Positions 6,767-35,951 of a stretch of DNA of 64,000 nt are shown in pieces. The stretch comes from a virus (taxonomy: Duplodnaviria > Caudoviricetes), in the IMG/VR virus record IMGVR_UViG_2915650412_000004, positions 11,383 to 75,382 of that record; one strand, written 5' to 3'. The notes under the pieces are model-generated. The model did no database searches. It worked only from the letters and a program-made list of their open reading frames with translations, and was not told the origin of the DNA. How positions within the stretch are numbered: position 1 is the stretch's first letter; each line of letters starts with the position of its first letter. The position numbers and the translations under genes are program-made.

Positions 6767-6772
6767 AGGCGT

Positions 6773-14460: not shown

Positions 14461-14589
14461 CTGCCCGTGCGCGGGAACCCAAAATATTCGCCGCGCTGCC
14501 TGTCCATTAACACCACATTTATTGAGGCATTCCACATTCCTCTTGCCGCTACCAACGGCACACCGCAATCAACACGAGGAGAAAAACAG

Positions 14590-15601: not shown

Positions 15602-15630
15602 CCAACCAAACCAAAACACGAGGATGACAT

Positions 15631-16927: not shown

Positions 16928-17004
16928 TGCGGAGTGGAGAAGTGGTCATCTCGTCTGGCTCATAACCAGAAGATCGTGGGTTCGAATCCCACCTGCCGCA
17001 ACCA
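16928..17004 (+). tRNA. tRNA-Met(CAT), fMet-like body
   Basis: Anticodon arm TCTGG-CTCATAA-CCAGA, T arm GTGGG-TTCGAAT-CCCAC, encoded CCA; one extra base in acceptor 3' strand. Confidence 0.85.
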
Positions 17005-17708: not shown

Positions 17709-18095
17709 ATGGCAAAGCCGAGAAATCCCCTCGGCAAAGCAAAGGTCGAGGGTCGCGACAAAATCAATGCCGGTCGGTACAAAAACCGCGCCGAACCGGC
17801 CGCAAACGGCCCTCTTGGGGCTCCTCCCGTTTGGTTGAAGGACAGCGCTGAGATCAAAGCGAAGTCAGCCTGGAAGCTTTTCGCCAAAGAGCTGCCGTGG
17901 CTGAATGAATCGCATCGAACACTGGTCGGAATGGCCTCGACTATTCAGGGACGCATCATGGCCGGGCAGGAGGTAGGCGTGCAGGCGATGAATTTGCTTC
18001 GCCAGATGCTTGGCCAGATGGGCGCTACGCCTGCCGATGCCTCCAAGGTGGCGACACCTGACGAGGGCGAGGAAAAGGATGATTTGCTTGACTGA
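17709..18095 (+). CDS. terS: Terminase small subunit
   Basis: Position before terL; PPVWL...W; MGATPADASKV. Confidence 0.75.
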   Translation: MAKPRNPLGKAKVEGRDKINAGRYKNRAEPAANGPLGAPPVWLKDSAEIKAKSAWKLFAKELPWLNESHRTLVGMASTIQGRIMAGQEVGVQAMNLLRQMLGQMGATPADASKVATPDEGEEKDDLLD

Positions 18096-19950
18096 TATGC
18101 CTGCGCTTGAGCGTGTGAGCGCTTATGCGCAAGCCGTCATTGATGGCAGAGAAGTTGCCGGCCCTCACGTTCGTAATGCCTGCCGCCGCCATTTCGACGA
18201 TCTCGAACACGGTCACGAGCGCGGCCTGTATTGGGATGACGACGCAGCCGACCGCGTGTTTCGGTTCTTTGAAGGGCGTCTCAAGCTTTCTGAAGGTCAG
18301 TTTGAAGGCAAGCCATTCAAGCTGCACGCCTCACAGGCTTTCAAGCTGGGTTCTCTCTTTGGCTGGAAACGTGCCGACGGTTCGCGCCGTTTTAGGCGCG
18401 CCTACATCGAGGAGGGCAAGGGTAATGGCAAGTCTCCGTTTGCTGGCGGTGTCGGTCTGTACGGGCTGATCGCGGACAAGGAAGCTGGCGCGCAGATTTA
18501 TGCCGCCGCTGCCAAGAAAGAACAGGCTGGGATTCTGTTTCAGGACGCCGTGAAAATGGTTCGCGCGGCTCCGGCGCTGGTCGAACGACTGAAGTTCAGC
18601 GGCGGTATCGGGCGCGAGTTCAATATCGCGCATCACAAGTCGCAATCGTTTTTTCGCCCGATCTCGAAGGATTCCGGCAAGTCTGGCTCTGGTCCGCGAC
18701 CGCATTTTGCGCTCTGCGACGAGGTGCACGAGCATCCCGACCGCTCGACGATGGAAATGCTTGAGCGCGGCTTTAAGTTTCGTCGTCAGCCGCTGCTGCT
18801 GATGATTACGAACTCGGGCAGCGACAGAAACAGCATTTGCTGGGAAGAACACGAGCATGCCGTCAAGGTAGCTGCTGGTACGCAAACGCCAGATGACGAT
18901 TTTACCTATGTCGGCGAGGTGATCGACGACACGACATTTTCCTATGTCTGCGCGCTGGACAAGGGCGACCATCCGCTCAAGGACGAAACCTGCTGGAAGA
19001 AGGCTAACCCGCTTCTGGGCGTTATCTTGACGCAGGAATATCTGGCCGGCGTTGTTGCTCAGGCAAAGCAGATGCCGGGCAAGCTGAACGGCATTCTTCG
19101 GCTGCACTTCTGCTGCTGGACCGATGCCGACAAGGCATGGATGCCGCGCGAGACCGTCGAAAGCGTAATGGACGATTTCGATCCTGAAGTCGAACACGCT
19201 GACAAACCCGTTTTCATGGGCGTCGACCTGTCCGGTAGCAAGGATATGACTGTGCTCGCGTGCGTTGTTCCTACTGGCTTCAAGGAAATGGAGCGGGAAG
19301 ACGGATCTACCGTCAATCTGCCGACGTTTGATGCGTGGGTGGAGGCTTGGACGCCAGCTGATACGCTGGAAGCGCGAGAACAGGCTGACAAGGCGCCATA
19401 TGCGCTTTGGGTAAAACAGGGGTGGTTGAATGCTCCGCCCGGCAAGCGAATTAGATATGATTTCGTGGCATCGCGGGTCCAGCAACTCGATCAGGCGTTC
19501 GATATCAAGGCCATCGCCTATGACCGCTATGCCTACGACAAGTTCCGCGAGGAAGTCGAAGCGCTCGGGTTGGACATTGAACATGTCGCGCACCCACAGG
19601 GCGGCAAGGTTCGGGCTCGGCCTGAGCCTGCGAAGGTAGAGGCTGCAAAAGCCGCTGGCTTACCGCCGCCGCAAGGCTTGTGGATGCCGGGCTCGGTTCT
19701 GGCGCTCGAAGACATGATCATCGACGGTCGCATTCGCATGCGCCGCAGTCCGGTGCTTATGACCGCCCTGATGGGTGCCACCTTCGATCATGACCCGCAA
19801 GATAACCGGTGGTTCGTGAAGACGAAGGCGTCAGTGCGCATCGACGCTGCTGTCGCTTTGGCAATGGCGGTTGGTGTGGCGATGGATACACCGATCGAGC
19901 CAGCCGACATCGACGACTTCGTCAACAACATGATCACTATAATTTACTAA
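18079..19950 (+). CDS. terL: Terminase large subunit; C-terminus supplied by the satellite att junction
   Basis: EGKGNGKS Walker A, CDEVHEH Walker B, GVDLSGSKD, RIDAAVA. Confidence 0.95.
   Translation: MICLTDMPALERVSAYAQAVIDGREVAGPHVRNACRRHFDDLEHGHERGLYWDDDAADRVFRFFEGRLKLSEGQFEGKPFKLHASQAFKLGSLFGWKRADGSRRFRRAYIEEGKGNGKSPFAGGVGLYGLIADKEAGAQIYAAAAKKEQAGILFQDAVKMVRAAPALVERLKFSGGIGREFNIAHHKSQSFFRPISKDSGKSGSGPRPHFALCDEVHEHPDRSTMEMLERGFKFRRQPLLLMITNSGSDRNSICWEEHEHAVKVAAGTQTPDDDFTYVGEVIDDTTFSYVCALDKGDHPLKDETCWKKANPLLGVILTQEYLAGVVAQAKQMPGKLNGILRLHFCCWTDADKAWMPRETVESVMDDFDPEVEHADKPVFMGVDLSGSKDMTVLACVVPTGFKEMEREDGSTVNLPTFDAWVEAWTPADTLEAREQADKAPYALWVKQGWLNAPPGKRIRYDFVASRVQQLDQAFDIKAIAYDRYAYDKFREEVEALGLDIEHVAHPQGGKVRARPEPAKVEAAKAAGLPPPQGLWMPGSVLALEDMIIDGRIRMRRSPVLMTALMGATFDHDPQDNRWFVKTKASVRIDAAVALAMAVGVAMDTPIEPADIDDFVNNMITIIY
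19922..19942 (+). repeat. Left att junction TCAACAACATGATCACtATAA
   Basis: 16-bp exact match plus ATAA, shared with 35952-35972. Confidence 0.9.
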
Positions 19951-19978
19951 GCTTAAAACTAGTAAGAAAATCAAATAG

Positions 19979-20004
19979 ATAGGCCCTTGGGTGGGCCTAT
20001 TTAT
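19979..20004 (+). terminator. Terminator-like hairpin immediately after terL
   Basis: ATAGGCCC-ttgggt-GGGCCTAT then TTAT. Confidence 0.55.
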
Positions 20005-20037
20005 AGCTAAAAGCCGCCGCTATGTATTCATTCGTAA

Positions 20038-20100
20038 AATCAATGGTTTAGCGTGAATTATCGAGAATTGACGGCTTCTCGATGCGACATTGATGCGACA
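20038..20100 (+). promoter_or_regulatory. IHF site and arm-type integrase site
   Basis: AATCAATGGTTTA matches WATCAANNNNTTR; GCGACA-N5-GCGACA at 20084-20100 is mirrored at 35904-35920. Confidence 0.55.
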
Positions 20101-20113
20101 AGAAAGGAAGCAC

Positions 20114-20320
20114 ATGGAACAGGAAAAAGAAGGGGCCGACCTGCTCTATGGCGTCCCTGCAATTGCAACGTTCCTCCGTATGAGTGAGCCCGCAGTTTAT
20201 CATTTATCCCGTCGTGCTGATTGGCCCGGATTCAAGATCGGCGGCAAGGTCTGCGCTCGCCGCTCAGCAATTGACCAGTGGATTTCCGACATGGAAGCAA
20301 AGGCGAGGTCAACACAATGA
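20114..20320 (+). CDS. Excisionase/AlpA-like HTH protein (satellite)
   Basis: ADLLYGVPAIATFL...FKIGGKVCARRSAIDQW; paralog of 34532-34735. Confidence 0.8.
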   Translation: MEQEKEGADLLYGVPAIATFLRMSEPAVYHLSRRADWPGFKIGGKVCARRSAIDQWISDMEAKARSTQ

Positions 20321-20412
20321 GCGTGGCGTTTCTGCTCGGCTACATGCTGATCTTCGGCGGTGCCATTGTTGGGCCGCGTCTGATGACGCAGGCAGGAAGC
20401 GCCGGGAAGTGA
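20317..20412 (+). CDS. 31-aa hydrophobic peptide
   Basis: MSVAFLLGYMLIFGGAIVGP..., fills the gap with ATGA coupling. Confidence 0.45.
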   Translation: MSVAFLLGYMLIFGGAIVGPRLMTQAGSAGK

Positions 20413-20413
20413 A

Positions 20414-21604
20414 ATGAAGCGCAAGCACGACATACCGGCATGGCGGCAGCAACAATTGGTCAGGCTGGCCTTACGCCATTCTGAGACAACTAAGGCTGAC
20501 TGCGCCGTCCTTGCGGAGATCGTGCAGCGATACCATGGCGAGTACGGCAACGGCTGGGCCAGCTTCGATATGCTCATTGAAGAGACTGGCCTGCATAAGA
20601 CCACAATCATCAAGGCAAAACGCAAGCTTGAACGGCTCGGCTTTGTTTCCGTCCTGTCACCGGGACGCAGGGGCCGCTCAACGGTCTACTTGCCGAATTT
20701 TGATTTAGTTCCCGAAAAAGGTAGTGCACAGACTACCGAAACAAAGGGTAGCGTAGACGCTACCGTAATTGATGGTTTGGGTAGTCAGGACGCTACCGAA
20801 TATGGCGCTTTAGGTAGCGTGGACGCTACCACCTCCTACTTACAGTTACCGGTTTACAAAACCGGTATACTGGAAAGTAATATTGACCCTGCTGCGCCGC
20901 CCATGGCTGGCCTTACGGCCGCCAGTGCAGGCGCGCATGGGGAAGGGAAATTCGACCAGCTATATAAAGCGTATGGCCACAGGCGGGGCAGGGCGGATGC
21001 TCGCAAGGCATATGAAGCCCTTGCACTGACCGACGAGGCACATGCCGACATATTGGCCGCCGCTGAGGCATGGCGTCAGGCATGGGCGAGGCAGGGTAAT
21101 CCTGATGCGCCACGCTTCACGCTCGCGAAGTGGCTGGAGCGCGAATGCTACCACGAAGACCCGCCGACCGGCTTTAAGTCCAAAGAGCCGAAGAAACCGA
21201 AATCGGAAAGTTTGCCTACCCGGAATGCGGCGACGGTAAGCCAGTCCGAAACGCCAGCGCCTGGTGAAGAATATGGCGCTATCGATGTTTGCGCGTTCAC
21301 TCCTACCGGCACCTTCGAGGCCGAGATAATCGGCAGCGATGTCATTGCTACCGGGAACGAAGTCGTGTTGCGGCTGAATCTTCAACTGTCTGACGGGAAA
21401 GGAACACCTCTCGGTGAGACAGCCCATGAATTTTTCGTGCAGGCGAATGAGAAATCCAAACAAGATCGCGGGCAGGCATTCCTTACACAAGTCGCAGAGG
21501 CAGTCGGCTTGAGGGCTCTTGAAGATTCGAGCGATTTTCACGGCAAGCGGTGCCGGGTCACGATCAATAACCGGCGAGAAATCACCTACCACAACACGAG
21601 GTAA
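20414..21604 (+). CDS. Satellite replication initiator: N-terminal wHTH, C-terminal DUF669-like domain
   Basis: WASFDMLIEETGLHKTTIIKAKRKLERLGF HTH; internal iterons; C-terminus resembles 333-884. Confidence 0.75.
   Translation: MKRKHDIPAWRQQQLVRLALRHSETTKADCAVLAEIVQRYHGEYGNGWASFDMLIEETGLHKTTIIKAKRKLERLGFVSVLSPGRRGRSTVYLPNFDLVPEKGSAQTTETKGSVDATVIDGLGSQDATEYGALGSVDATTSYLQLPVYKTGILESNIDPAAPPMAGLTAASAGAHGEGKFDQLYKAYGHRRGRADARKAYEALALTDEAHADILAAAEAWRQAWARQGNPDAPRFTLAKWLERECYHEDPPTGFKSKEPKKPKSESLPTRNAATVSQSETPAPGEEYGAIDVCAFTPTGTFEAEIIGSDVIATGNEVVLRLNLQLSDGKGTPLGETAHEFFVQANEKSKQDRGQAFLTQVAEAVGLRALEDSSDFHGKRCRVTINNRREITYHNTR
20720..20830. repeat. Four GGTAG-N8-CTACC iterons (satellite origin)
   Basis: 20720-20737, 20747-20764, 20780-20797, 20813-20830. 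Confidence 0.8.
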
Positions 21605-21606
21605 AT

Positions 21607-21858
21607 ATGGCGAATGACTTTTATGACGATGCAGTAGACGAACCAGAAGCCGCGGCACCGGTCCAGCATTTCACCTGCATGATCCAGATCGAGCCGTTTG
21701 ACGCTGAAACCGAAGACGATGAAAAGCTGCGCGTTGTCGGCATTGTGCAAGGCACAGACGATGAAACTTTTGATTTCATCGCGATCAAAACCCTCGAAAA
21801 TGGCGAGATGTACCCGACCCGTGAAGCCACGGTTTGGTCTGTTTCCCAAAAATCCTAA
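21607..21858 (+). CDS. Acidic hypothetical protein
   Basis: ACACGAGGTA RBS, coupled to rep. Confidence 0.65.
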   Translation: MANDFYDDAVDEPEAAAPVQHFTCMIQIEPFDAETEDDEKLRVVGIVQGTDDETFDFIAIKTLENGEMYPTREATVWSVSQKS

Positions 21859-21860
21859 TC

Positions 21861-21960
21861 ACAGATCGTCGTAGCGCCTGCTGTGGTGGCGGGCACCTAT
21901 TTGCTGCGACAGATCCCCCGCCCGGTCTCTCCTCCTCGTGTGCCGGGCGGGGGCGGTTTC
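21861..21960 (+). ncRNA. Candidate structured sRNA in the tRNA leader; loop antisense to the helper RBS motif
   Basis: Stem-loop ~21864-21914 and perfect 11-bp stem 21915-21925/21943-21953 with loop UCUCUCCUCCUCGUGUG. Confidence 0.55.
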
Positions 21961-22034
21961 TCGGCCTTCGCCTAACGGTAGGGCAGCGCACTTTGAATGC
22001 GCCGGTACTGGTTCGATCCCAGTAGGCCGATCCA
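21961..22034 (+). tRNA. tRNA-Gln(TTG) (satellite)
   Basis: Acceptor TCGGCCT/AGGCCGA, anticodon arm GCGCA-CTTTGAA-TGCGC, T arm ACTGG-TTCGATC-CCAGT, CCA. Confidence 0.9.
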
Positions 22035-22061
22035 TTTTTTCAAATACGGAGGCTATCGCCC

Positions 22062-22211
22062 ATGACGGAATCCGATCATGCCGAAAACAGCGAATCCGCA
22101 TTCGACGGCGCTCATCGTGGTCGGCGCATAAGTTGGGCCGAGTTATACCGGCAACGCCCGGACTTGAAGTCAAATTCTGAAAATCGAAAAGCCGCCGACG
22201 AGGCAGCTTAA
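22062..22211 (+). CDS. 49-aa peptide (MTESDH...ISWAELYRQRPDLK...DEAA)
   Basis: GGAGG RBS; not in the ORF track because of length. Confidence 0.55.
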   Translation: MTESDHAENSESAFDGAHRGRRISWAELYRQRPDLKSNSENRKAADEAA

Positions 22212-22278
22212 CGACCAAAAGCGCACCGCGCTTATTTCACCCACCAATTCCCAATTCTGCAAAATAGGAGGCGTCCCG

Positions 22279-22794
22279 ATGCGCAAATCGGCCGTCATTG
22301 AAATCCTTGCGCGCCGGCTCCGCATAGCGCCCGGACGCATTCAAGCAATCGCGGATCGCTTGGCCTCCGCTGGCCTGATTTCGAACGCCGAGGGCAGTAG
22401 GCGATATCCTCCTGACCTGTCCGAACCTGAAATCGTCACGCTGGTTATCGCGGTCATCGCCGATAGTGGCCTTGGCAACGTGAAAGCGACAGTTGACACG
22501 TTCTCGTCCTTGGCCAGCGAAGGGATTGCCTTCGGACACGTTCTTCAACGTGTGCTGTTCGGCCGCCCGGTGGATATCGCACACGTCATCGTCCGTCATG
22601 ACCCGGCAGGAGTGTCGGCGGTGATCGACGGCAATCATGCCGTCTATGGCGCTGAAGCACCTGAAAAAGCCGCAACGACGGCGCGCATCATTCCGGGCGA
22701 TGCACTGATTGCCATCGCCGCAGAACTGCAAGGCCAGCACCCCCAGCAGGCGGATGCCTTGGTCGAACTTATCAAAATTCGGAGATCGCTATGA
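22279..22794 (+). CDS. Hypothetical protein, possible N-terminal HTH; candidate late activator
   Basis: AGGAGG RBS; heads the satellite capsid operon. Confidence 0.65.
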   Translation: MRKSAVIEILARRLRIAPGRIQAIADRLASAGLISNAEGSRRYPPDLSEPEIVTLVIAVIADSGLGNVKATVDTFSSLASEGIAFGHVLQRVLFGRPVDIAHVIVRHDPAGVSAVIDGNHAVYGAEAPEKAATTARIIPGDALIAIAAELQGQHPQQADALVELIKIRRSL

Positions 22795-23081
22795 GCAAGG
22801 TTGAAGCGCTGCTCGACCGTTTGGCGGAAGCCACCGCCGAGTCCGACGACTACGCCGAACTGCCGCCCGAACTCGCTAAAGAGGCAAGGCTGCATGTCTG
22901 GGATGCGCATTACGCCAATTCAGACGAACGCGCCCGCTTGGACGCGAAACTGGCCGCTTCATCGCCTGAATTTCAGGCTGCTGTCGCGGTCACCGAAACG
23001 GCGCTGGCCGAAGAGCTTGCCGCCAATAATGAGCGACGCGCCCGCGTTCGCAGAGAAAACCCATCTTATTTCAAGGACTAA
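22791..23081 (+). CDS. Helical hypothetical protein before capsid gene
   Basis: Coupled ATGA overlap; Ala/Glu/Arg rich. Confidence 0.65.
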   Translation: MSKVEALLDRLAEATAESDDYAELPPELAKEARLHVWDAHYANSDERARLDAKLAASSPEFQAAVAVTETALAEELAANNERRARVRRENPSYFKD

Positions 23082-23083
23082 CT

Positions 23084-24175
23084 ATGACAAATCTCGCAAC
23101 TATGATTTCCGATCTGGGCAATGAATTCAAAGCCAGCACCGGCGACCTTTCCTCCCGCATCAGCGAGCTCGAAAAGCGTGCGGCTCGCGAGCCTTCCGGT
23201 GATATGCTCTATGCAAATGGCGAAACTATCGCCGACAAGATGGTAGAATCCGCAGCCTTCAAGTCGCTGGAGGGTGGTCGCGTCCGTGGCCGTGCGCACG
23301 TCGAAATGGCGGCCATCACTTCCGGCAACACTACCGTTGGCACTGGTCGCTCCGCAGCTACTTCGCTGGTGGGTGCTGATCGCCGCCCTGGCATTGTTAC
23401 ACCTGCCGAGCGCGTCCTGACCGTCCGTGACCTTATCGCTCCGGGCGAAACCAGCGCGGGCTCAATCGAATACGTGAAGGAAACGGGCTTTACCAATAAT
23501 GCCGCTCCCGTCGCTGAAACGACGCAGAAGCCTTACTCCGATCTGACATTCGATCTGGTGACGGCACCGGTCCGCACGATTGCGCACCTTTTCAAACTGT
23601 CAAAGCAGATCATGGACGATGCGCCCGGTCTCGTCAGTTATGTGAACGTGCGCGGTACGTCGGGCCTGAAGCTCAAGGAAGAGAACCAGCTTCTCTTCGG
23701 CGACGGTACAGGTCAGAACCTTTTGGGCCTGATTCCACAGGCAACCGTATTCGATGACGCGCTACGCTCCACGGGCGACACCCGCGTTGACACTCTGCGC
23801 CGTGCTATCCAGCAGGTACGCCGTGCCGAATACCGCGCATCCGGCATCATCATGAACCCGGACGACCTCGCCGACCTTGAACTGACCAAGGACGCCGGCG
23901 GCAACTACATTATTGTCGATCCCGTTGAAGGCGGTCAGGGCCGAGTGTGGCGTCTGCCTATCGTGGACACCACTGCAATGCCAGCGGGTCAGTTCCTCGT
24001 TGGTGCGCTCGATACGGCTGCCCAACTTTTCGACCGTCAACAGGTGATCTTCGAAATCTCGACTGAGAACGCCGACGATTTCGAAAAGAATATGGCGACT
24101 GCTCGTATCGAAGAGCGCCTGGCTCTTGCCGTGTATCGTCCGGAAAGCATCGTTACCGGCCAGTTCGAAGCCTAA
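23084..24175 (+). CDS. Satellite major capsid protein (HK97 fold)
   Basis: Colinear similarity to helper MCP (ITSGNTTVG, EYVKETGFTN, GDGTGQNL, IEERLALAVYRPE). Confidence 0.95.
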   Translation: MTNLATMISDLGNEFKASTGDLSSRISELEKRAAREPSGDMLYANGETIADKMVESAAFKSLEGGRVRGRAHVEMAAITSGNTTVGTGRSAATSLVGADRRPGIVTPAERVLTVRDLIAPGETSAGSIEYVKETGFTNNAAPVAETTQKPYSDLTFDLVTAPVRTIAHLFKLSKQIMDDAPGLVSYVNVRGTSGLKLKEENQLLFGDGTGQNLLGLIPQATVFDDALRSTGDTRVDTLRRAIQQVRRAEYRASGIIMNPDDLADLELTKDAGGNYIIVDPVEGGQGRVWRLPIVDTTAMPAGQFLVGALDTAAQLFDRQQVIFEISTENADDFEKNMATARIEERLALAVYRPESIVTGQFEA

Positions 24176-24268
24176 TCACGTTCAGGCGCCGTGAATGTCC
24201 GGCTGGCCCTGTCGGCAAGTTATGGAGCGCGGCGCCGTCCTCCTGAGAGCGCTTCACAACATGGGCAC

Positions 24269-24322
24269 GCCGCTGGCTGGAGTCCCCCGCTTTCGAGCGC
24301 GCAGCCAGCGGCTCTTCCTTTT
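24269..24322 (+). terminator. Long hairpin terminator after satellite capsid gene
   Basis: GCCGCTGGCTG...CAGCCAGCGGC then TCTTCCTTTT. Confidence 0.55.
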
Positions 24323-24327
24323 CAAGA

Positions 24328-24549
24328 ATGGAGATATCAATGCCTGTAGGCAGACTAAAAGCATGGCGTAACGGCTATGGCTTTCTCACAACGGACAACG
24401 GTTCGGACATGTTCGTCCATATCACCGCATTCCAATTCGCGGGCGAAGAGCCAGAAGTGGGTGCCTTTTACTCGTACAAGGCCGGGATGTTTAAGGACAA
24501 GATTATCGCGACCCATCTGAAGCGTGTGGATGATCATGGCGACGGGTAA
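24328..24549 (+). CDS. Cold-shock domain protein 1
   Basis: GRLKAW..GYGFL...DMFVHITAF (RNP1/RNP2). Confidence 0.85.
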   Translation: MEISMPVGRLKAWRNGYGFLTTDNGSDMFVHITAFQFAGEEPEVGAFYSYKAGMFKDKIIATHLKRVDDHGDG

Positions 24550-24766
24550 GGTCCTCTTTTTCCACAATGGCTACGGCTTCATCGCTGCCGAGCCTTGCAA
24601 CGTTTTCTTCCATCGCGCTGCCGTCGATGGCGATGTGCCAAAGGCTGGCGATATGGTCCGCTACGATGCCATGCCAAGTGGCAGGAGTAGCCCTAAGGCG
24701 AACAGCGTTCGCGTCATCGACCAGGACGTCTTGGCCGAAGCTGAGCGGGTGTTTGGGTCGCAATGA
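24536..24766 (+). CDS. Cold-shock domain protein 2
   Basis: MATGKVLFFHNGYGFI...VFFHRAAV. Confidence 0.85.
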   Translation: MATGKVLFFHNGYGFIAAEPCNVFFHRAAVDGDVPKAGDMVRYDAMPSGRSSPKANSVRVIDQDVLAEAERVFGSQ

Positions 24767-25059
24767 GTAGAGGTGAAAGCGCAGCTTGGCAGCACCTTTA
24801 TAAGCGGTCGAGATGGATCAAGATGCGTGAGCGACATCTGATGCAGTCGCCCTTGTGCGTTTATTGCCTTGAGGTTGGCAACGTGGAGCCTGCCACGATT
24901 TGTGATCATCGCACCCCGCATAGAGGGAGCGAGGATCTCTTCTGGGACGCTGACAATCTCATGTCCCTTTGCAAGCCCTGTCATGATCGGATCAAGCAGC
25001 GCGAAGAACGCGGAGAGAAGGTCATTCGATTTGGCGCGGACGGATACCCCATCGAGTGA
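24763..25059 (+). CDS. Satellite packaging HNH endonuclease
   Basis: PLCVYC...DHRTPHRG...LMSLCKPCH; homolog of 17310-17600. Confidence 0.9.
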   Translation: MSRGESAAWQHLYKRSRWIKMRERHLMQSPLCVYCLEVGNVEPATICDHRTPHRGSEDLFWDADNLMSLCKPCHDRIKQREERGEKVIRFGADGYPIE

Positions 25060-25135
25060 CCACCCACCCATAAGGGGGGCAATCGAAGTCTGGAAGCCGC
25101 TCGCTCTAGGAGCGGCCCGGACCCACAACGCATAC
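25057..25135 (+). promoter_or_regulatory. Probable satellite cos/packaging region
   Basis: Between HNH and terS; aligns with helper 17598-17670. Confidence 0.5.
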
Positions 25136-25172
25136 ACGTGCTGCCCCGGTTCAAATAAAAATTGGAGGCTCA

Positions 25173-25529
25173 ATGCCCAAAAACCCCACAAATTCAGCGG
25201 TCAAACCGCCAAAACACCTGCGAAAACCAACGCAAAATTGGTTCAAATCTGTAATAGACGACTTCGATTTGGAGCCTCATCATATCAAATTGCTAACTCT
25301 TGCTGCTGATGCGTGGGATCGGGCGGTCTCTGCGCGCGAAGTAATCGACGCGGATGGGATGACTTACACCGACCGTTTCGGGCAGCCGAAGCCACGCCCA
25401 GAAGTCGCAATCGAGCGTGACTCCCGCATCGGCTTCACCCGCCTTATTCGCGAGCTTGCTTTGGATGGCGTGGATGCTCCAGAAACGCCGCGCCCACCGC
25501 GCACTGCCGACTACGGGAATAGGCGCTGA
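25173..25529 (+). CDS. terS: Satellite terminase small subunit (P27-like)
   Basis: PPKHL...W...GQPKPRPEV.IE......RLIRELAL. Confidence 0.8.
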   Translation: MPKNPTNSAVKPPKHLRKPTQNWFKSVIDDFDLEPHHIKLLTLAADAWDRAVSAREVIDADGMTYTDRFGQPKPRPEVAIERDSRIGFTRLIRELALDGVDAPETPRPPRTADYGNRR

Positions 25530-25765
25530 TGCCCGTTCGTCGCAAAGCCGATAGACGACGCACGACGTTTCTGTTTGAAGATTGGGGGGAATTCCTCGGC
25601 ACCGGCATCGACATGTTCTCCGATCTTCACCACGCCGGGATTACGGTCGACCACGAGCCGCCGCCACGCGAACTGGCCGAACAGGCTTGGCGCGCTCTTG
25701 GTGCGCAGATTGTCTCCGCCTATGGCACCGAGTGCTGGGGCGCGCGCGAATTTGGGCAATCCTGA
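25529..25765 (+). CDS. Hypothetical protein (MPVRRK...)
   Basis: Coupled TGATG overlap. Confidence 0.65.
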   Translation: MPVRRKADRRRTTFLFEDWGEFLGTGIDMFSDLHHAGITVDHEPPPRELAEQAWRALGAQIVSAYGTECWGAREFGQS

Positions 25766-26037
25766 TGCCGGTTCGGAAAAGACACAACCGGCGAGCCGAC
25801 CGAGTGGATTTCGAGATTACGCCTGAAATACGCGCCGCGTTTGAAGCCTACATCGAAAGCGAACCCGTCGAGGGTGGCGGTTGGCGTGAGCATTGGCGTT
25901 TGCACGATCTACTGCATGAGGCGGGCGTCTTGAGGCTGCCATATTGCCCGCCGTGCTGCTTCCATCCACAGGATCACGGAACCAGATGGCAATATGCGCC
26001 CCATGCTGTGGCCATCTACCGCCATCTTTCACAGTAA
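25765..26037 (+). CDS. Hypothetical protein (MPVRKR...)
   Basis: Coupled TGATG overlap, ATG at 25765. Confidence 0.6.
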   Translation: MPVRKRHNRRADRVDFEITPEIRAAFEAYIESEPVEGGGWREHWRLHDLLHEAGVLRLPYCPPCCFHPQDHGTRWQYAPHAVAIYRHLSQ

Positions 26038-26039
26038 AT

Positions 26040-26063
26040 GCCCGCCGTTGAGCGGGCTTTTTT
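26040..26063 (+). terminator. Intrinsic terminator
   Basis: GCCCGC-cgttga-GCGGGC then T6. Confidence 0.7.
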
Positions 26064-26076
26064 ATGAGGTACATTC

Positions 26077-26445
26077 ATGTCCGATAAGCCTTTTTCACAG
26101 ATTACGCAGCCATTTGGCGACGGCGAATATAACTTCGCGCTGACTTGGGATGGCGCGATTGAGTGGGAAGAAAAAACGAGCCGTAGCCTTTATGGCACCT
26201 TCAAATTTATGGCCGAACATCAAAGTGGATTGGTTGCCGATGTGCGCGAAATTATCCGCATCGCATTAGTCGGTGGCGGACTGGCTCCGATACGGGCTCT
26301 GTCGCTGGTCAAGCGATATGTGGAGGGGCGTCCGCTTGATGAAAGCCTACCCGTCGCACTGAGCGCAATCGAGGCTTTCCTTTTCGGTCCCGACGATAAA
26401 TCCGGCGACACCGCCAAGACGGGAGAAGTCCCAGCCGATGGCTAA
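26077..26445 (+). CDS. Satellite tail assembly chaperone (GTA gp10-like)
   Basis: FGDGEYNFALTW...VREIIRIALVGGGL.P..A..LVKRYVE; homolog of 43374-43814. Confidence 0.8.
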   Translation: MSDKPFSQITQPFGDGEYNFALTWDGAIEWEEKTSRSLYGTFKFMAEHQSGLVADVREIIRIALVGGGLAPIRALSLVKRYVEGRPLDESLPVALSAIEAFLFGPDDKSGDTAKTGEVPADG

Positions 26446-26878
26446 GAAATGGCACGCATCGGCAGCGTTCAAAAAGAGGCTGGCGAAGCTGCCGGCATCT
26501 GTTCTCAAAAGGACCAATGAGGCCATCAAGAAGAACGCCGAGGAATGGGTGGACTGGGCGCAGAAGATGGCCCCGGAAGACCCGAAAGACGGCATTCATC
26601 TGAGGCCTTCGATCCGCAATTACGAATCTGAAACCGGCGGCCAGGTGGTTCGTGCAGGTGGCGAGGCGACAACCGTGAACGGTTACGATTATGCCCTTGG
26701 CGTCGAGTTTGGAACCGCGCCTCACATCGCAGGCGGTCAATTCGAAGGTGCGCATCATCCGGGTACGTCAGGGCAGCCGTTCTTTTGGCCCTCATATCGA
26801 ATGCTGCGAAAGCGAATGTCTGGTCGTCGCCGACGCGCACTGAATCAAGCCGTGAAGGATTTCAACGATGGCAAGTGA
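26438..26878 (+). CDS. Satellite HK97 gp10-like tail completion protein
   Basis: YALGVEFGT...QPFFWPS; homolog of 41147-41614. Confidence 0.8.
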   Translation: MAKKWHASAAFKKRLAKLPASVLKRTNEAIKKNAEEWVDWAQKMAPEDPKDGIHLRPSIRNYESETGGQVVRAGGEATTVNGYDYALGVEFGTAPHIAGGQFEGAHHPGTSGQPFFWPSYRMLRKRMSGRRRRALNQAVKDFNDGK

Positions 26879-29084
26879 ACCCGCCCTCTATGCTCGTATG
26901 GAAATGCGCGTGAAAGATGCCGAGAAGCAACTGGCGAAGTTCAGTCAGCGACTCGACCAATCGGCCGGCAGCATGGAGCGGCGATGGAGCCGTGCCTCCA
27001 AAAACATGCAGACGTCAATGTCAAAGGCATTCGGCGGCAGCAGTTTGGCGAAGGGCATTTTTGCGGGCGTTTCGGCTGCGGGCGCAAAAGAACTGATTGA
27101 CGCCGCTATCCGTATCGAGAATGCGTTGAAAGTGGCCGGCCTGTCTGGCCAGCAATTGAATGACGTATATGACCGCCTGTTTCAGAGTGCGACCAAAAAC
27201 GCAGCGCCACTTGAAACACTGGTCACGCTGTACGGCCGCGTTTCCTTGGTCCAAAAGAACCTCGGTGCATCGACCGAAGATCTTTTGAAATTCACCGATA
27301 GTATCGCCATGGCGCTACGGGTGGCAGGCACTAGCCCGGAACAGGCCAGCGGCGCTTTGCTCCAGCTTTCGCAGGCTCTCGGCAGCGGGACGGTGAGAGC
27401 AGAAGAATTCAATTCTATGATGGAAGGCGGTTTGCCGATCCTTCAAGCCGCGGCAGCGGGCATCAAAGAGGCTGGCGGCGATGTCGCGAAGTTGCGCAAC
27501 ATCATGCTGGACGGTGAATTATCTTCAAAGGCGCTCTTCAAAGGCATTGAGGCCGGAACGCCCATTCTGGAAGAGCGGCTCGCGGGCGCTGTTCTGACAA
27601 TTGATCAGCGCATGACGAATCTGAAAACGGCGCTGGTCGATGCGGCGAAGCGCTTTAATAACTCGACGGAGGCAGCCAATACCTTCGGCACCGCCATCGA
27701 CAATACCGCTGCGTTTATCAACAATATCAACTTTGAGACGTTCATCTCCAAGATAAATCAGGTTGTGGAGGCTTTTGCCAGAGGCCAGGCGGCTGCCAAT
27801 AACTTTGCCAATGACGTTGGCGCGGCTCTCGGTCTGGATAATATCGGCAAGTTGCTAACCGGCGGCGAAGCGCAGAAGAGCTTCCTTGGTGGTGCGTTGA
27901 CGATTACGTCATCGAAAGTTATTCAAGACCGCATTACCGATGCATTCAAGGGCGGTGCAGTCGAGGGCAGTGCCGAAATGGACAAGGTTCTGCGCGAGAA
28001 GTACGGGAAAGGCGCCCGCCTTAAGCCAGAAAGTACAAACCCCGGCACCACTGCGCAATTCACCCCAGTATCCATCAAGGATTTCCCCGCAGACGGTGCC
28101 GGCAAGGATAAGAAGAAGAAAAGCGGCAGCAAAACCCACGCCAAAACCGCTGACCAGCAGATCGATAGCGACATTCAGTCGGTCCGCGATCGAATTGCAG
28201 CGATGCAGCTTGAAACGCAGCTTGTAGGCAAGTCGTATCAGGAGCAGGAAAAGCGGCGTATGTCGCTGGAGCTGGAGCAGGCAGCACTCGCCAAGCTTCG
28301 TGACGAGGCGATCAAGAAAGGTCAGACTGACCTTTCGAATATCAAGATTTCAGAAGAAACACGCGGCAAGATTGACGCTGTGTCCGAGGCTTATGCAAGG
28401 CAAGCAGAAGAACTTCGCCGAGTTCAAGACCAGCAAGACCGAGCAGAGCAGGCGGCAGACGATTTCTACGATACGTTCAAAAGCAGCACGGTGGGCGCAA
28501 TTACCGGCGCTAATAGCCTTGCCGACGCATTGCAGAACATTGCGAATAAGCTGGCAGACCTCTTCTTGAGTGCAGGTTTCGATGCCTTGTTTAAGCCATC
28601 TTCTGGCGGGGTCGGAGGCGGTGCCTTCGGAAGTATATTCAGCGGGCTGGGCAAGCTCATCGGCTTTGACAGCGGCGGCTACACGGGCCCCGGTGGCGTT
28701 AAGCAGCCAGCAGGCGTCGTTCACAAAGGTGAGGTCGTATGGTCCCAAGATGACATTCGCCGCGCCGGAGGCGTCGGTAAGGTCGAAGCCATGCGTCGCG
28801 GCCTTGCTGGTTACGAGCGGGGCGGGGCGGTGAGTATGCCTTCACTATCGGCACCGCGTATGCCCGACCTTTCGCGCATCACGAACAACAGTAATAGCAC
28901 GGTCAACAGCGCGCCTGTGATTAACGTGACTGTGAATGGGGCTACTGGCGATAAGGAAATTGAGGCTCGCGCTTTCTCTGGCGCCCAGAGAGCGATCATG
29001 CAGTGGCAAAAAACGCCGTATTTCGCCCAAGCCGTTGCTGGCGGCGTTAAACAGGCAAATAAGCGCGGGATGCTACCCCGCTAA
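26868..29084 (+). CDS. Satellite tape measure protein (738 aa)
   Basis: LLQLSQALGSGTVRAEEFNS tape-measure domain; GFDSGGYTG...AGVVHKGE motif. Confidence 0.9.
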   Translation: MASEPALYARMEMRVKDAEKQLAKFSQRLDQSAGSMERRWSRASKNMQTSMSKAFGGSSLAKGIFAGVSAAGAKELIDAAIRIENALKVAGLSGQQLNDVYDRLFQSATKNAAPLETLVTLYGRVSLVQKNLGASTEDLLKFTDSIAMALRVAGTSPEQASGALLQLSQALGSGTVRAEEFNSMMEGGLPILQAAAAGIKEAGGDVAKLRNIMLDGELSSKALFKGIEAGTPILEERLAGAVLTIDQRMTNLKTALVDAAKRFNNSTEAANTFGTAIDNTAAFINNINFETFISKINQVVEAFARGQAAANNFANDVGAALGLDNIGKLLTGGEAQKSFLGGALTITSSKVIQDRITDAFKGGAVEGSAEMDKVLREKYGKGARLKPESTNPGTTAQFTPVSIKDFPADGAGKDKKKKSGSKTHAKTADQQIDSDIQSVRDRIAAMQLETQLVGKSYQEQEKRRMSLELEQAALAKLRDEAIKKGQTDLSNIKISEETRGKIDAVSEAYARQAEELRRVQDQQDRAEQAADDFYDTFKSSTVGAITGANSLADALQNIANKLADLFLSAGFDALFKPSSGGVGGGAFGSIFSGLGKLIGFDSGGYTGPGGVKQPAGVVHKGEVVWSQDDIRRAGGVGKVEAMRRGLAGYERGGAVSMPSLSAPRMPDLSRITNNSNSTVNSAPVINVTVNGATGDKEIEARAFSGAQRAIMQWQKTPYFAQAVAGGVKQANKRGMLPR

Positions 29085-29151
29085 GCGTATTGGATGCCCT
29101 TCGGGGTGTCCTGTAACCGCCTATTGATATTGATGATTGGCGCCTGTCGCA

Positions 29152-29166
29152 GAACGTGATTGGAAC
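29152..29166 (+). promoter_or_regulatory. Alphaproteobacterial LexA (SOS) box
   Basis: GAAC-GTGATTG-GAAC, overlapping a putative -35 upstream of CTATAT. Confidence 0.6.
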
Positions 29167-29232
29167 AATTCTCAGGCGTTCCTATATAAAACGCTGAACA
29201 TGTATGAAAAATGTACAGGTCAGCTAAGCTTG

Positions 29233-29267
29233 CGTGCTACGAAACGAGACGCGAGTTTCGTAGCACG
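29233..29267. promoter_or_regulatory. Perfect 13-bp inverted repeat (operator or hairpin) upstream of the TA pair
   Basis: CGTGCTACGAAAC-N9-GTTTCGTAGCACG. Confidence 0.55.
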
Positions 29268-29334
29268 TTGCTTAACATTCGTCAATATGTTAAGTGATGG
29301 CATTAACTGAACACCAGACAGAAAGGAACGTGCA

Positions 29335-29529
29335 ATGGCAGTTATCTCAAGCGCGTTCGGTCAGGTGAAATTGACCGATGACGACGCTAAGAAGTTTCGT
29401 AATCAGGTGACATTCGGTAAACCAAAAGCAGCCGCACATGAGACTGTCAAGAAAGGGCGCGAGCTCTTCAAGGAGTTTCAGGGCAAGGGTAAAGTGAAGT
29501 TTACCGTCAAGGCAGCCACGGGGGAATAG
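29335..29529 (+). CDS. Putative antitoxin resembling the toxin-binding half of DUF1778 (AtaR/TacA) antitoxins
   Basis: VKLTDDDAKKF...KPKAA; directly upstream of GNAT. Confidence 0.55.
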   Translation: MAVISSAFGQVKLTDDDAKKFRNQVTFGKPKAAAHETVKKGRELFKEFQGKGKVKFTVKAATGE

Positions 29530-30060
29530 TTGCCGAACGACGAATTCGAAGTTGAACTAAGACTGATAGAGCCCAGTGATAAAGTCACTGGGCTTTCTCT
29601 TGGCAGTGAGGAGTTCACGCCGCTGAAGATGTTTATTCAGCGGAAAGCCAAGGATTATCAGGTCAATAGTTTTGCCAGGACTTATGGTCTGTTTGGCCCT
29701 GAGGCGAAACTGATCGGTTATATCACGCTCATCTGCGGCGAGATCCTGACAAAGACGCCCCAGGACGTGATTCCGCCAGAACAGATCTACGACTACAAAA
29801 CATTTCCATCTGTGAAGATTGCCCGCCTTGCCGTCGACAGACGATATCAGGGCAAGGGACTGGGCGATTATCTGGTTTCTTTTGCGATAGGTGTTGTCAA
29901 GGACGCGATTGCGCCTCACGTCGGTTGTCGTTTCGTCGTTGTTGATTCGAAACAGTCAGCGGTGAGGTTTTATGAGCGTCTCGGCTTCACGCTGCTTGAT
30001 ACAGCTACGAACAGGGCCAACGAACAGCCGGTGATGTATCTCGACATCCTTAAAGCCTGA
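29530..30060 (+). CDS. GNAT acetyltransferase toxin (AtaT/TacT-like)
   Basis: IARLAVDRRYQGKGLG, VGCRFVVVDSK..AVRFYERLGF. Confidence 0.85.
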   Translation: MPNDEFEVELRLIEPSDKVTGLSLGSEEFTPLKMFIQRKAKDYQVNSFARTYGLFGPEAKLIGYITLICGEILTKTPQDVIPPEQIYDYKTFPSVKIARLAVDRRYQGKGLGDYLVSFAIGVVKDAIAPHVGCRFVVVDSKQSAVRFYERLGFTLLDTATNRANEQPVMYLDILKA

Positions 30061-30243
30061 TTAGCGTTGATTTCTCAATGATGCGTTCCTGAGCGCCCGT
30101 CGTAGGGCGTTTCACCCGGGATTCCTGTGAACATCCCCTAGCATCAGGGCGGCGCGGGTTGTGCAGGTGGTCCCTTCCAATCATTCTACCTTGGGGCGAG
30201 ACAGGGAGATAAATGCAACCTAACTCACCAAAGCGAGATCACC

Positions 30244-30474
30244 ATGAATACCATTCCTTACACCGCGTCTCTTTCCTGCGGCACTTGCGGCACAAAGGGC
30301 GTTCGAATTGACGACGATGCGGACGAAAATTCCATCGTTAGATGTAAGAATCCCGACTGCGACACAACTTTCGGCACTTGGGGAGATGTCCGAAAAATGG
30401 TTCGCGAAAAAACGGCGAAGAAAGCCAAGGATGACATCGTTGCATCGCTGAGAAAATCTCTGCGGAAGAGATGA
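30244..30474 (+). CDS. Small Zn-ribbon protein
   Basis: CGTC...CKNPDC, basic tail. Confidence 0.6.
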   Translation: MNTIPYTASLSCGTCGTKGVRIDDDADENSIVRCKNPDCDTTFGTWGDVRKMVREKTAKKAKDDIVASLRKSLRKR

Positions 30475-30548
30475 CGTGCGGCGCCCTTCGGGGCGTCTCA
30501 ACGTCAACTATAGATTGATTATTCCACCGAGAACAATTATTCAACCTC

Positions 30549-31727
30549 TTGGTGGAGGGGCTTGTGAAAAAACTAACAATTCGTTATCGGCGCCGGCTTT
30601 TATATTGGGCTAACAAAAGGTCGCGCAAGAAAAACTCAGGCACGGCCAAATTTGGTTATGTTCTGAGCGCAGATAGATTCGACCAAGTAAGGCTACCGTC
30701 AAACGCGATACAGATGCCGAAAGTGTTTTGTTTAGTGCAAAACACCGAACAAACGCTGTCGTTTCTGGAAAAAACGAGGCAGCGGTTGCTTGCCCCCCCA
30801 TTGTCTGGAACGAGGTCTCTCGCGGCACATGTAACTGGGAAAAGGAAAAATAAATCCGCGCCGCGATGGATAGGCCCTTATGTTGACTTTACAACCATAG
30901 AATTCATCAGCCCAGCCGCGGCTCTGGTGCTTGCTGCGGAATATCACAGGGCTGTTCTACTGAAAGAACAGAGCACGAAGAATATTTCTCGGCTGTTCTT
31001 GGTCGACGTTCATAAATGGAAGGCAAATGTAATAGAGAGCTTGATTGAAGTAGGATTCTTTGAGCTTTTGAAAATCACTGAAGGTGTACAGGCGCCAGAA
31101 GAGGGGGACCGGAAAATTCTAAAACTTCGCAGTGGCAGTCGAAATCAAGCTGATGAAGTGGATGGATTGCTCAATAGTATTGAGGAAATGTTCAGTGGTG
31201 TAGGTTTGAACGCCAACGATGCGTGCTTTGAACTTAACGGCGCATTGGGCGAGGCAATGGAGAATGCAGTCCGTTGTGCCTATCCAACTGAAATTTCTTT
31301 TGGCCGACCTCATGTTTCAAAGTGGTGGATGACAGGATCACTTTCGAAGGCTCAGCGTCAAATGACTGTGGCGATATATGATCAGGGAGTATCTATACCA
31401 GGTTCGCTTAGTAGTTGGCAGCTTTACGGTGGATTCCTAAACCGATTTCTAAGGAAGTTCGGTATGGCAAGAGATAGCGCCGACCCCAGATTTGATGGAG
31501 ATGTCATCGCACTGGCAATCGATGAATCTGTTACGTCTACGGGATTGCAAAAACATGGTAAGGGTTTGGGTCATATAAAGGCTTTTATCGATTCCTGTAG
31601 CGCTGGCAGTCTGTTAATTATAAGTAGGCAGGGAATGTATATATATGAAAAAGGGAAGCCGCCTCTCACGTACAATTTACCGATAAGATTATCAGGTACA
31701 TTGATCCAGTGGAACGTTGTAATTTAA
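30549..31727 (+). CDS. STAS-like plus GHKL (HATPase_c) kinase/ATPase
   Basis: VDFTTIEFISP (STAS-like); EAMENA N-box, DQGVSIP G1, GKGLG G2; start uncertain. Confidence 0.75.
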   Translation: MVEGLVKKLTIRYRRRLLYWANKRSRKKNSGTAKFGYVLSADRFDQVRLPSNAIQMPKVFCLVQNTEQTLSFLEKTRQRLLAPPLSGTRSLAAHVTGKRKNKSAPRWIGPYVDFTTIEFISPAAALVLAAEYHRAVLLKEQSTKNISRLFLVDVHKWKANVIESLIEVGFFELLKITEGVQAPEEGDRKILKLRSGSRNQADEVDGLLNSIEEMFSGVGLNANDACFELNGALGEAMENAVRCAYPTEISFGRPHVSKWWMTGSLSKAQRQMTVAIYDQGVSIPGSLSSWQLYGGFLNRFLRKFGMARDSADPRFDGDVIALAIDESVTSTGLQKHGKGLGHIKAFIDSCSAGSLLIISRQGMYIYEKGKPPLTYNLPIRLSGTLIQWNVVI

Positions 31728-31757
31728 TGGGAGTTAACCTTTAGAAGGTTAAATCAA

Positions 31758-32120
31758 ATGAGCTTGAGAGTCATCGAAGTGCTGGATATTGGAAGAGATT
31801 TTACACTGACGCCTGGTGCTCGGTATAAAAAGCATGGAGATTTTTCTGGCGAAGAATTTCGAACTAAACTTCTGGCTCCTGCTTTGCGGCGTGTAATCAA
31901 TGCCGACGGGGTTCTGAATGTTGTCATTGATACTGTGAAAAGAAGCTATCTGGTTTCTTTTTTAGACGAAGCTTTTGGCGGTTTAATAAGAGACGAAGGC
32001 TTTTCTCTAGAGCAAACAAATCAGCATTTAAATATTGTAAGCTCGAATAAGCGATTCGAGAAATATAGAATACTAGCAAAAAACTATATTCTCCGGGCAT
32101 CTGAAGAGCATGCCAAGTAA
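31758..32120 (+). CDS. Stand-alone STAS-like (DUF4325-type) protein
   Basis: PGARY...SGEEFR...SFLDEAFGGL. Confidence 0.8.
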   Translation: MSLRVIEVLDIGRDFTLTPGARYKKHGDFSGEEFRTKLLAPALRRVINADGVLNVVIDTVKRSYLVSFLDEAFGGLIRDEGFSLEQTNQHLNIVSSNKRFEKYRILAKNYILRASEEHAK

Positions 32121-32595: not shown

Positions 32596-32721
32596 AAGTT
32601 AATATTGGAAATTCTAGTACTAACTTTAGATAGGCTTTAACCAACACGGTATTACTGACTTGTGCTCTTAAAGCATTCCAGTTCCAACCGATTGCGGAAT
32701 TCAGCTATCGCGGTCATGAAG

Positions 32722-33078: not shown

Positions 33079-33178
33079 GAAATCCCCCGGTTGAACGGGC
33101 TTTCCATAGCATAGGCAAGCCTTGCCCCGAAAGGGGAGACTTTAACTTGAATTTTACGATGATTTCGGTAAGGGTATT

Positions 33179-33480: not shown

Positions 33481-33487
33481 GACCACA

Positions 33488-35931: not shown

Positions 35932-35951
35932 ATCGCTGATTTCATTGGCAC

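Follow-up and report, generated by a model that had tools for sequence, protein, structure and literature searches.

Can a satellite lodged inside a prophage silence its helper through RNA? This question is raised by 64,000 nucleotides (nt) of caudoviricete DNA (IMG/VR record IMGVR_UViG_2915650412_000004, positions 11,383 to 75,382; hereafter the window), in which a short RNA element with two hairpins lies directly ahead of a tRNA-Gln gene. A preliminary description of this DNA had noted that the loop of the second hairpin is antisense to a motif repeated at ribosome-binding sites of the surrounding helper phage. It had proposed that a satellite small RNA (sRNA), cut from the leader of the tRNA, silences the replication and recombination genes of the helper while sparing its structural genes. 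The window corresponds to G000:C28:27553-91552 in a genome of 4.29 Mb (G000), and where relatives of its proteins are named, they belong to Brucella (formerly Ochrobactrum) species. Because 21-bp direct repeats bound it, the 16-kb insert that carries the element is a satellite lodged in the late operon of the helper. Our analysis of this satellite and its relatives suggests that it may silence its helper through RNA.

Positions 21932-21941, in the loop of hairpin 2, are the exact complement of the 10-mer ACACGAGGAG, which forms the core of a helper 12-mer consensus, AACACGAGGAGA. This consensus is the most repeated word of 10-12 nt in the helper (11-14 copies), and the next unrelated word reaches at most six. 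Seven exact and two one-mismatch copies of ACACGAGGAG lie on the + strand of the window (Table 1), where the sole minus-strand copy is the loop itself. These 10 matches compare with 3.0 ± 1.7 expected, and none of 100 shuffles reached 10. Of the 19 occurrences in the 4.29-Mb genome, 14 fall within this prophage; excluding the loop, 13 helper copies compare with five in 4.2 Mb of host sequence, which is about 60 times larger. ACACGAGGAG is the sole 10-mer of the loop complement with enrichment in the helper. Read in gene orientation, 12 of 13 helper copies stand 0-9 nt ahead of an ATG that opens a reading frame, and they mark early genes for replication and recombination. A loop complement of 8 nt or more occurs at no helper virion gene start, and the motif is seldom used by host ribosome-binding sites. 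The preliminary description had these matters right: the 11-bp G+C stem, the 17-nt loop, the 7 nt that separate it from tRNA-Gln, the seven motif copies with their two variants, the 11-nt complement at the ribosome-binding site of a gene now confirmed as SRAP, the satellite's own 8-nt copy at 21594 and the absence of the motif from virion gene starts were all recovered. The motif also proved rare in host ribosome-binding sites.

Folding of a 106-nt stretch yields two hairpins at -52.8 kcal/mol (z = -3.8; none of 200 shuffles was as stable), and the loop of hairpin 2 has a high unpaired probability throughout. In hairpin 1, the apical loop (GUGGU) complements ACCAC, a sequence common in the CA-rich leaders 5' of the helper motif. 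These leaders are 76% A+C, and ACCAC occurs in 64% of them versus 1.8% of random helper stretches, which bears out the second complementarity that had been claimed for hairpin 1. No Rfam family, including the C4 model, was found for the element by cmscan at an E-value of 10 or less in 21500-22400; this search yielded only the tRNA and a chance ylbH match (13 bits versus a threshold of 50). Likewise, a scan for intrinsic terminators did not call hairpin 2, which has a 17-nt loop and a tail, CGGUUUC, with three U. The element is probably the 3' end of the satellite rep operon, read on the + strand as a structured RNA.

Further satellites were reached through Rep relatives in IMG/VR and in a large protein collection. 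The element is present in at least 10 related satellites from other genomes of the Brucella/Ochrobactrum group, where it lies 3' of rep (L022, L023, L045/L046, L047, L048, L050 in genome G422, L051/L052, L059 and L060). Rep identity to the window across these loci ranges from 44 to 79%, and a covariance model retrieves every copy of the element with E-values of 1e-18 to 4e-7. What follows the hairpin is tRNA-Gln in the window, L022, L023 and L047, tRNA-Leu(UAA) in L051 and L052, and a portal ribosome-binding site or other sequence with no tRNA in L045, L046, L048, L050, L059 and L060. The sequence GCGGUUU after the stem is kept with or without a tRNA. Because the sequence 3' of the hairpin varies in this way among loci, the hairpin is, as these comparisons have it, the constant feature and the tRNA an incidental cargo in the slot behind it. 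The original view of the element as specifically a tRNA leader is thereby abandoned. This one slot has taken up different tRNAs independently. The tRNA-Leu(UAA) genes (L051 11198-11274 and L052 2857-2933) start immediately after the GCGGUUU of the hairpin. Capture of a host tRNA locus was ruled out, as the host tRNA-Gln(UUG) is unlike the satellite tRNA-Gln.

Other searches for relatives added little to this set. Among 400 genomes of the family, the best Rep match was only 36% identical and no rep-adjacent tRNA was present, and genome contigs yielded no Rep relatives. An exact 30-mer probe from the satellite tRNA found nothing in genome and metagenome contigs and only two known loci in viral contigs. 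Patterns anchored on the stem, applied to metagenome and viral contigs, returned the known loci and otherwise only unrelated G+C-rich hairpins.

The two hairpins are supported by compensatory changes among these loci. Alignment of the raw set with MAFFT and RNAalifold misaligned the arms and gave a poor consensus, and an alignment fitted to the covariance model was used instead. In it, 86% of cells are paired and 15 compensatory pairs are found, versus 6.1 ± 1.5 in shuffles (none of 500 reached 15) and at most four in slid controls, with the caveats that the alignment is itself fitted to the model and that one row (L011) is a different RNA and inflates the helix-3 counts somewhat. This L011 sequence, from genome G020, is a weak model match that was first taken as a distant homolog. 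In helix 1, eight of 12 outer pairs show a compensatory change. The hairpin 2 stem of L060 also covaries, with CCCGTCCAG pairing with CTGGACGGG, and its change from GCCCGG/CCGGGC to GTCCAG/CTGGAC is seen independently of the model-fitted alignment.

The alignment also indicates the strand, because the frequent G-U pairs are compatible with the + strand only. A role for the DNA itself or for the opposite strand, in which the minus-strand motif copy serves as a decoy for a helper factor or the inverted repeat as an origin or packaging signal, is very improbable. The minus strand within the loop does read CACACGAGGAG, and rep adjoins the element. However, on that strand many G-U pairs of helices 1 and 2 become A-C mismatches, the motif lacks a following start codon and no promoter-like site occurs near the element, and the satellite core genes are all on the + strand. 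The further idea that this minus-strand copy is itself a ribosome-binding site was ruled out by the same missing start codon.

The conservation of the hairpin 2 loop is sharply divided. The loop reads CTTATTCTCCTCGTGTG in L022, CTTTCTCTCCTCGTGTG in L045, TTTCTTCTCTCCTCGTGTG in L047, TTTTTTCTCTCCTCGTGTG in L023, TTGCTCCTCGTGG in L048, L050, L051 and L059, and TTTTTTCTCCTCG in L060. The 5' parts are diverse (TCTCTC, CTTATT, CTTTCT, TTTCTTCT, TTTTTTCT and TTG), and the 3' core is retained: five loci share an invariant CTCCTCGTGTG, four others share CTCCTCGTG (as RNA, CUCCUCGUG), and CTCCTCG is present in L060 (CUCCUCG). The seed kept overall is thus CUCCUCG(UG[UG]), the complement of the helper motif, and in most relatives the match to the motif extends to 11-12 nt (ACACGAGGAGA[A/G]), longer than that of the window. 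For the window, L022, L045, L047 and L023, five of six positions before the core vary compared with none of 11 core positions, and the length varies too. A rough calculation on these related sequences, with five variable sites placed randomly over 17 positions, gives the chance of such a split as 6/6188, or about 0.001.

These data bear on whether the complementarity between loop and motif arose by chance. In favor of this view, the match was noticed post hoc, in a reading that sought complementarity, and its core includes the common complement of the Shine-Dalgarno sequence. However, each strand of 16 kb should hold only about 0.015 such matches, even before a loop is required, and the matched 10-mer is the top repeat of the helper. 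Moreover, the matching block is exactly the part of the loop conserved in 10 loci, which are not near-identical recent copies given the range of Rep identity. Because the loop block is conserved across loci, a coincidence is hardly credible.

A different target might lie within the satellite itself. The loop could act in cis by pairing with the ribosome-binding site ACACGAGGUAA of the gene after rep, which is located about 330 nt upstream in the same transcript. The 8-nt match at 21594 is kept in the window, L022 and L045, and L048 has a 7-nt match. However, this motif-like site at orf83 is absent from L047, L023, L050 and L051, and these four loci, together with L059, keep the loop without such a gene or ribosome-binding site in the satellite. 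In addition, a complement of 7-8 nt is shorter than the 9-12 nt of the helper sites. Cis regulation is thus clearly improbable.

Duplex energies calculated for the loop and gene start regions point to the helper genes that carry the motif. The mean is -20.1 kcal/mol for nine motif genes, compared with -11.8 kcal/mol for other helper early genes, -10.1 kcal/mol for helper late genes and -9.9 kcal/mol for satellite genes. For 1250 rough host starts with a Shine-Dalgarno sequence, the mean is -12.0 ± 3.5 kcal/mol.

In two other complete pairs of satellite and helper, the helper carries clusters of the same motif. The G401 record, which carries L022, holds nine exact motif copies besides the satellite loop and five one-mismatch copies, and in G422, 13 of the 23 motif copies in 5.5 Mb cluster around the satellite. 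CACGAGGAG is preceded by an invariant A in G000 and G401, where the loops pair with this A as well; in G422 only CACGAGGAG is invariant and the loop complement comprises exactly those 9 nt. The length of the invariant motif therefore tracks how much of it each satellite loop complements, which is 9 nt for G422 and 10-11 nt for G000 and G401, and this agreement, across three cases, is suggestive. The prophage lineage with the start motif is common in the genus, because clusters of ACACGAGGAGA (at least four per genome; reversed control 0-2) occur in about 19 of 44 species representatives. One of the other motif copies in G000, at C12:375646-375656 on the minus strand, has the same flanks as the copy at window position 58962, with GTG replacing ATG, and is probably a relic of a related prophage.

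With the structure, its covariation, the strand, the conservation of the seed and the distribution of the motif established, we consider the chances about even that the loop serves as an antisense seed against early mRNAs of the helper, in the manner of an anti-Shine-Dalgarno RNA. Where a tRNA is present, RNase P would release the RNA at its 3' side, and where none is present, the 3' end would be made by some other processing step or by weak termination. Hairpin 2 would then display its extended anti-Shine-Dalgarno seed, CUCCUCG(UG[UG]), to the complementary AACACGAGGAGA of at least 13 helper early genes, including those for Sak4-like and DUF669 annealing proteins, a clamp, exonucleases and a methylase. 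Pairing of 9-12 bp between loop and mRNA would mask the ribosome-binding site and lower translation, and probably mRNA stability too, and the GUGGU loop of hairpin 1 may provide a second contact with ACCAC-rich leaders. Virion genes, which lack the motif and are needed by the satellite, would escape. In its full form, in which a helper-embedded satellite lineage of the Brucella/Ochrobactrum group shuts off the early genes bearing the start motif via a processed two-hairpin RNA and spares the virion genes, we put the proposal forward only tentatively.

The same complementarity would be expected if the hairpin were a sensor, such that leaders of helper early mRNAs pair with the loop and alter downstream termination, processing or translation, so that an active helper would be needed to switch on the satellite head genes or the tRNA. 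The hairpin lies directly 5' of the satellite portal ribosome-binding site in L048, L050 and L059, and is 5' of morphogenesis genes in all copies. Against a sensor, pairing is limited to the loop and the 11-bp G+C stem is not invaded; in the leaders inspected, the complementarity stops short of the stem arms. By its position, moreover, the satellite is already co-transcribed with the helper late genes. We judge this arrangement improbable.

More weight has to be given to the possibility that the element is a generic boundary hairpin, serving as a terminator, attenuator, processing site or stability element between the replication and head-gene modules, with a C/U-rich loop kept for another reason. 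The loop might be a binding site for an RNA chaperone of the host or an antiterminator of the helper, or serve as a general anti-Shine-Dalgarno loop against mRNAs of host or satellite, and its fit to the helper motif would arise since both center on a strong Shine-Dalgarno core. This possibility is suggested by a second, unrelated satellite in the same genome, of the capsid-forming type (L076, G000:C1:582800-595000; integrase, AAA_25 protein, MerR, portal, S78 protease and capsid genes). At the same boundary between replication and head genes lies a different RNA, about 160 nt long (C1:587884-588049), so that a similar loop occupies the same position in two unrelated RNA scaffolds. The loop of the second RNA, AUCCUCCUCGUU, includes CUCCUCG and sits on a hairpin with a U-run that is a clear terminator. 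This RNA has no Rfam match, its model (R2) gave no new members in 151 genomes of the family, and homologs are known in G419 and G020. The antisense reading also draws support from it: in G419, the homologous loop, UCUCUCUCCUCGUGCA, is a complement of 10-11 nt to the motif, and a motif-bearing prophage lies on another contig.

Such loops are also common among the sRNAs of the G000 genome. The helper carries an sRNA of the alpha-r14 family (RF02344, 82.6 bits) on the minus strand between early genes (6650-6772), whose three hairpin loops read CUCCUCCUCCCA, the last one on a terminator, and the host has several more sRNAs with loops of this kind. The helper alpha-r14 is a phage-borne copy of a host-type anti-Shine-Dalgarno sRNA. 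NfeR1, a member of this family, silences mRNAs by occluding ribosome-binding sites (PMC10746234). This precedent makes the antisense mechanism plausible. The preliminary description had regarded the mechanism as one without precedent; because anti-Shine-Dalgarno hairpin loops are a standard design of sRNAs in this bacterial group, and because the helper itself carries alpha-r14, the mechanism is instead of a known type.

A generic hairpin is further favored by the good pairing of the window loop with some host sites and by the G020 copy, whose genome shows no motif cluster, whether close by or farther away. However, the conserved block runs 3-5 nt past the Shine-Dalgarno complement (CG, UG, U), exactly to the limit of the invariant motif, and the helper is enriched in the motif alone among the 10-mers that complement the loop. 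Hairpin 2, with its 17-nt loop, only three U after the stem and a negative terminator scan, also does not resemble a terminator. On balance, a generic hairpin is rather unlikely.

Several observations weigh against the antisense reading. There is no promoter-like site near the element on the + strand. Loop and target do not truly covary, as the motif is identical in all helpers seen; the core is kept in 10 loop copies, and what the two sides show is co-conservation only. The more distant L053 retains both hairpins, yet its loop is unrelated, and in the L048 type additional G-U pairs can narrow the loop such that only UCCUC is left open. A 10-bp helix within a 17-nt loop would also be sterically strained. 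The G020 homolog of the second RNA has a similar loop, UCGUCUCCUCCUCGCGUG, yet that genome lacks a motif cluster. The presence of a motif prophage in all three satellite-bearing genomes is not significant alone, given its occurrence in about 19 of 44 species. Finally, the loop pairs at -17.7 kcal/mol or better with about 7% of the rough host starts that bear a Shine-Dalgarno sequence, and the loop is therefore selective but not exclusive. Of the original proposal of a satellite sRNA directed at helper early genes, the complementarity, the seed conservation and the motif distribution stand, and the loop also fits some host sites.

In the L053 copy (4775-4852), the stems are new and the loop reads UGAUCCGUGAUGGUAGC; its Rep is 53% identical over two thirds of its length. 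The L053 contig, like that of L060, does not reach the early region of the helper.

The closest known relatives in design are alpha-r14 (NfeR1; RF02344) and the related AbcR1/2 RNAs of Rhizobiales, which likewise have G+C stems, large loops and a C/U-rich anti-Shine-Dalgarno seed. Alpha-r14 family RNAs act in trans by covering ribosome-binding sites (PMC10746234). As in the element, one seed loop of the family is placed on the 3' hairpin. However, alpha-r14 has three hairpins, each with an unpaired CCUCCUCCC, whereas the element has two hairpins and one C/U-rich loop. Its seed, CUCCUCGUG(UG), differs from CCUCCUCCC, and it does not match the alpha-r14 model. The element is also encoded by a satellite and its proposed target is one repeated motif in another mobile element, in contrast to the host transport and metabolic mRNAs targeted by alpha-r14.

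Phage and satellite RNAs offer further parallels. The loops of the P1/P7 c4 antisense RNA pair with short sites, including a ribosome-binding site, and c4 acts in immunity on the operon that encodes it (icd/ant). This phage RNA is excised from a longer transcript, and its precursor is a substrate of RNase P (reference 206 in PMC4919922). The element does not match the C4 model, and it would target numerous genes of another element. The CI RNA of satellite P4 is likewise encoded by a satellite, processed from a leader and active by base-pairing, and it governs transcription termination of P4 itself; P4 acts on its helper P2 through proteins. The element has no sequence or model match to P4 CI RNA. 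To our knowledge, the known conflicts of satellites with helpers (Staphylococcus aureus pathogenicity islands, phage-inducible chromosomal islands (PICIs), PICI-like elements (PLE), and P4 on P2) work through proteins.

Cluster K mycobacteriophages carry a counterpart of the helper motif, the start-associated sequence (SAS). This asymmetric repeat has an AGGAG core and lies, in one orientation, a few nt 5' of the ATG of non-structural genes only (PMC3203893). SAS is nearly absent from the host, its function is unknown, and an RNA or protein partner has been proposed (PMC3203893). The helper motif behaves in the same way, as it is asymmetric, has a Shine-Dalgarno core, lies just 5' of the starts of non-structural genes and is rare in the host. 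The two differ in sequence (AACACGAGGAGA versus GGGATAGGAGCCC), host phylum and phage lineage. A complementary RNA is identified here, but it is in the satellite, whereas the motif lies in the phage. By their placement at sites in helper terL, portal or capsid genes, the window satellite and its relatives resemble helper-embedded PICIs (HE-PICIs), which have been described in Enterobacteriaceae only and with no RNA component reported (PMC10111431).

If the antisense reading is correct, interference would gain a new route, an RNA that hits a helper regulon through its common ribosome-binding motif. Start-associated sequences, a motif class of unknown function since 2011, would also gain their first candidate partner. 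Start-associated sequences would then be addresses for RNA regulators, which would answer a question open since the mycobacteriophage description. The system is tractable, with a seed of 9-12 nt, at least 13 natural targets, natural loop variants and motif phages in about 40% of the species of the genus.

Table 1. Coordinates of the RNA element, the helper motif copies and the surrounding genes (window numbering unless a locus is named).
Feature	Position	Strand	Remark
RNA element	21864-21953	+	~95 nt, two hairpins; 3' of satellite rep module
Hairpin 1	21864-21914	+	outer and inner helix with bulge; apical loop GUGGU
Hairpin 2	21915-21953	+	11-bp G+C stem, 17-nt loop
Hairpin 2 stem, 5' arm	21915-21925		CCCCCGCCCGG
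Hairpin 2 stem, 3' arm	21943-21953		CCGGGCGGGGG
Hairpin 2 loop	21926-21942		TCTCTCCTCCTCGTGTG
Conserved seed	21931-21942	+	CUCCUCGUGUG; 3' part of hairpin 2 loop; complement of helper start-associated sequence
Spacer	21954-21960	+	CGGUUUC, 7 nt; between hairpin 2 stem and tRNA
tRNA-Gln(UUG)	21961-22034	+	7 nt after hairpin 2 stem
Motif variant ACACGAGGAA	316-325	+	one mismatch; 5' of DUF669 gene
Motif	943-952	+	5' of 281-aa early gene
Motif	2063-2072	+	5' of DNA polymerase III beta clamp gene
Motif	7047-7056	+	5' of exonuclease gene
Motif	8138-8147	+	5' of MT-A70 methyltransferase gene
Motif	14572-14581	+	5' of metallophosphatase gene
Motif variant ACACGAGGAT	15616-15625	+	one mismatch; 5' of 366-aa gene
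Motif	58962-58971	+	5' of DNA-repair exonuclease gene
Motif	60301-60310	+	5' of DUF7768 gene
Loop complement ACGAGGAGGAG	62671-62681	-	11 nt; ribosome-binding site of helper SRAP gene
Satellite motif-like site ACACGAGG, then UAA	21594-21601	+	ribosome-binding site 5' of orf83; possible cis target
Helper early region	1-16.7 kb		Sak4-like and DUF669 annealing proteins, DnaN clamp, exonucleases, MT-A70 methylase, primase
tRNA-Met	16928-17004		after helper early region; followed by HNH, TerS, then TerL
tRNA-Met, L022	2751-2826		boundary tRNA of related helper
tRNA-Met, L047	3646-3722		boundary tRNA of related helper
tRNA-Met, L060	1947-2022		boundary tRNA of related helper
Helper terL	18010-19950
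Direct repeat, left	19922-19942		21 bp
Satellite	19943-35972	+	16 kb; between helper terL and portal
Satellite rep	20414-21604		replication initiator
Satellite integrase	34735-35931
Direct repeat, right	35952-35972		21 bp
Helper portal	35983-37227		followed by S49 protease, capsid genes, tail genes

The layout of the window was read from Pfam and PHROG scans, and nearly all of its genes are on the + strand. The insertion point of the satellite is the 3' end of helper terL. The satellite encodes, in order, an AlpA-like protein, Rep, orf83, the RNA element, tRNA-Gln, capsid, HNH, TerS, tail tube-like, completion, tape-measure and cargo proteins, a second AlpA-like protein and the integrase; its tail module is partial. 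Satellites of this family lie inside helper late genes of Brucella/Ochrobactrum-group genomes (L045, L047, L048, L050, L051, L052, L059, L060 and the window). The helper terL is cut to 166 aa by satellites L050-L052, the portal gene is hit in L048, L059 and L060, and L047 lies after the capsid gene. Morphogenesis modules vary within the family: some members carry portal, a protease-capsid fusion and TerL, and others have capsid and tail parts only. At the boundary between early and late helper genes, directly 5' of HNH-TerS-TerL, a tRNA-Met gene is kept in related helpers. A tRNA-SeC gene (G000:C28:14617-14712), about 13 kb upstream of the window and near the first minus-strand motif genes, may be the attachment site of the helper.

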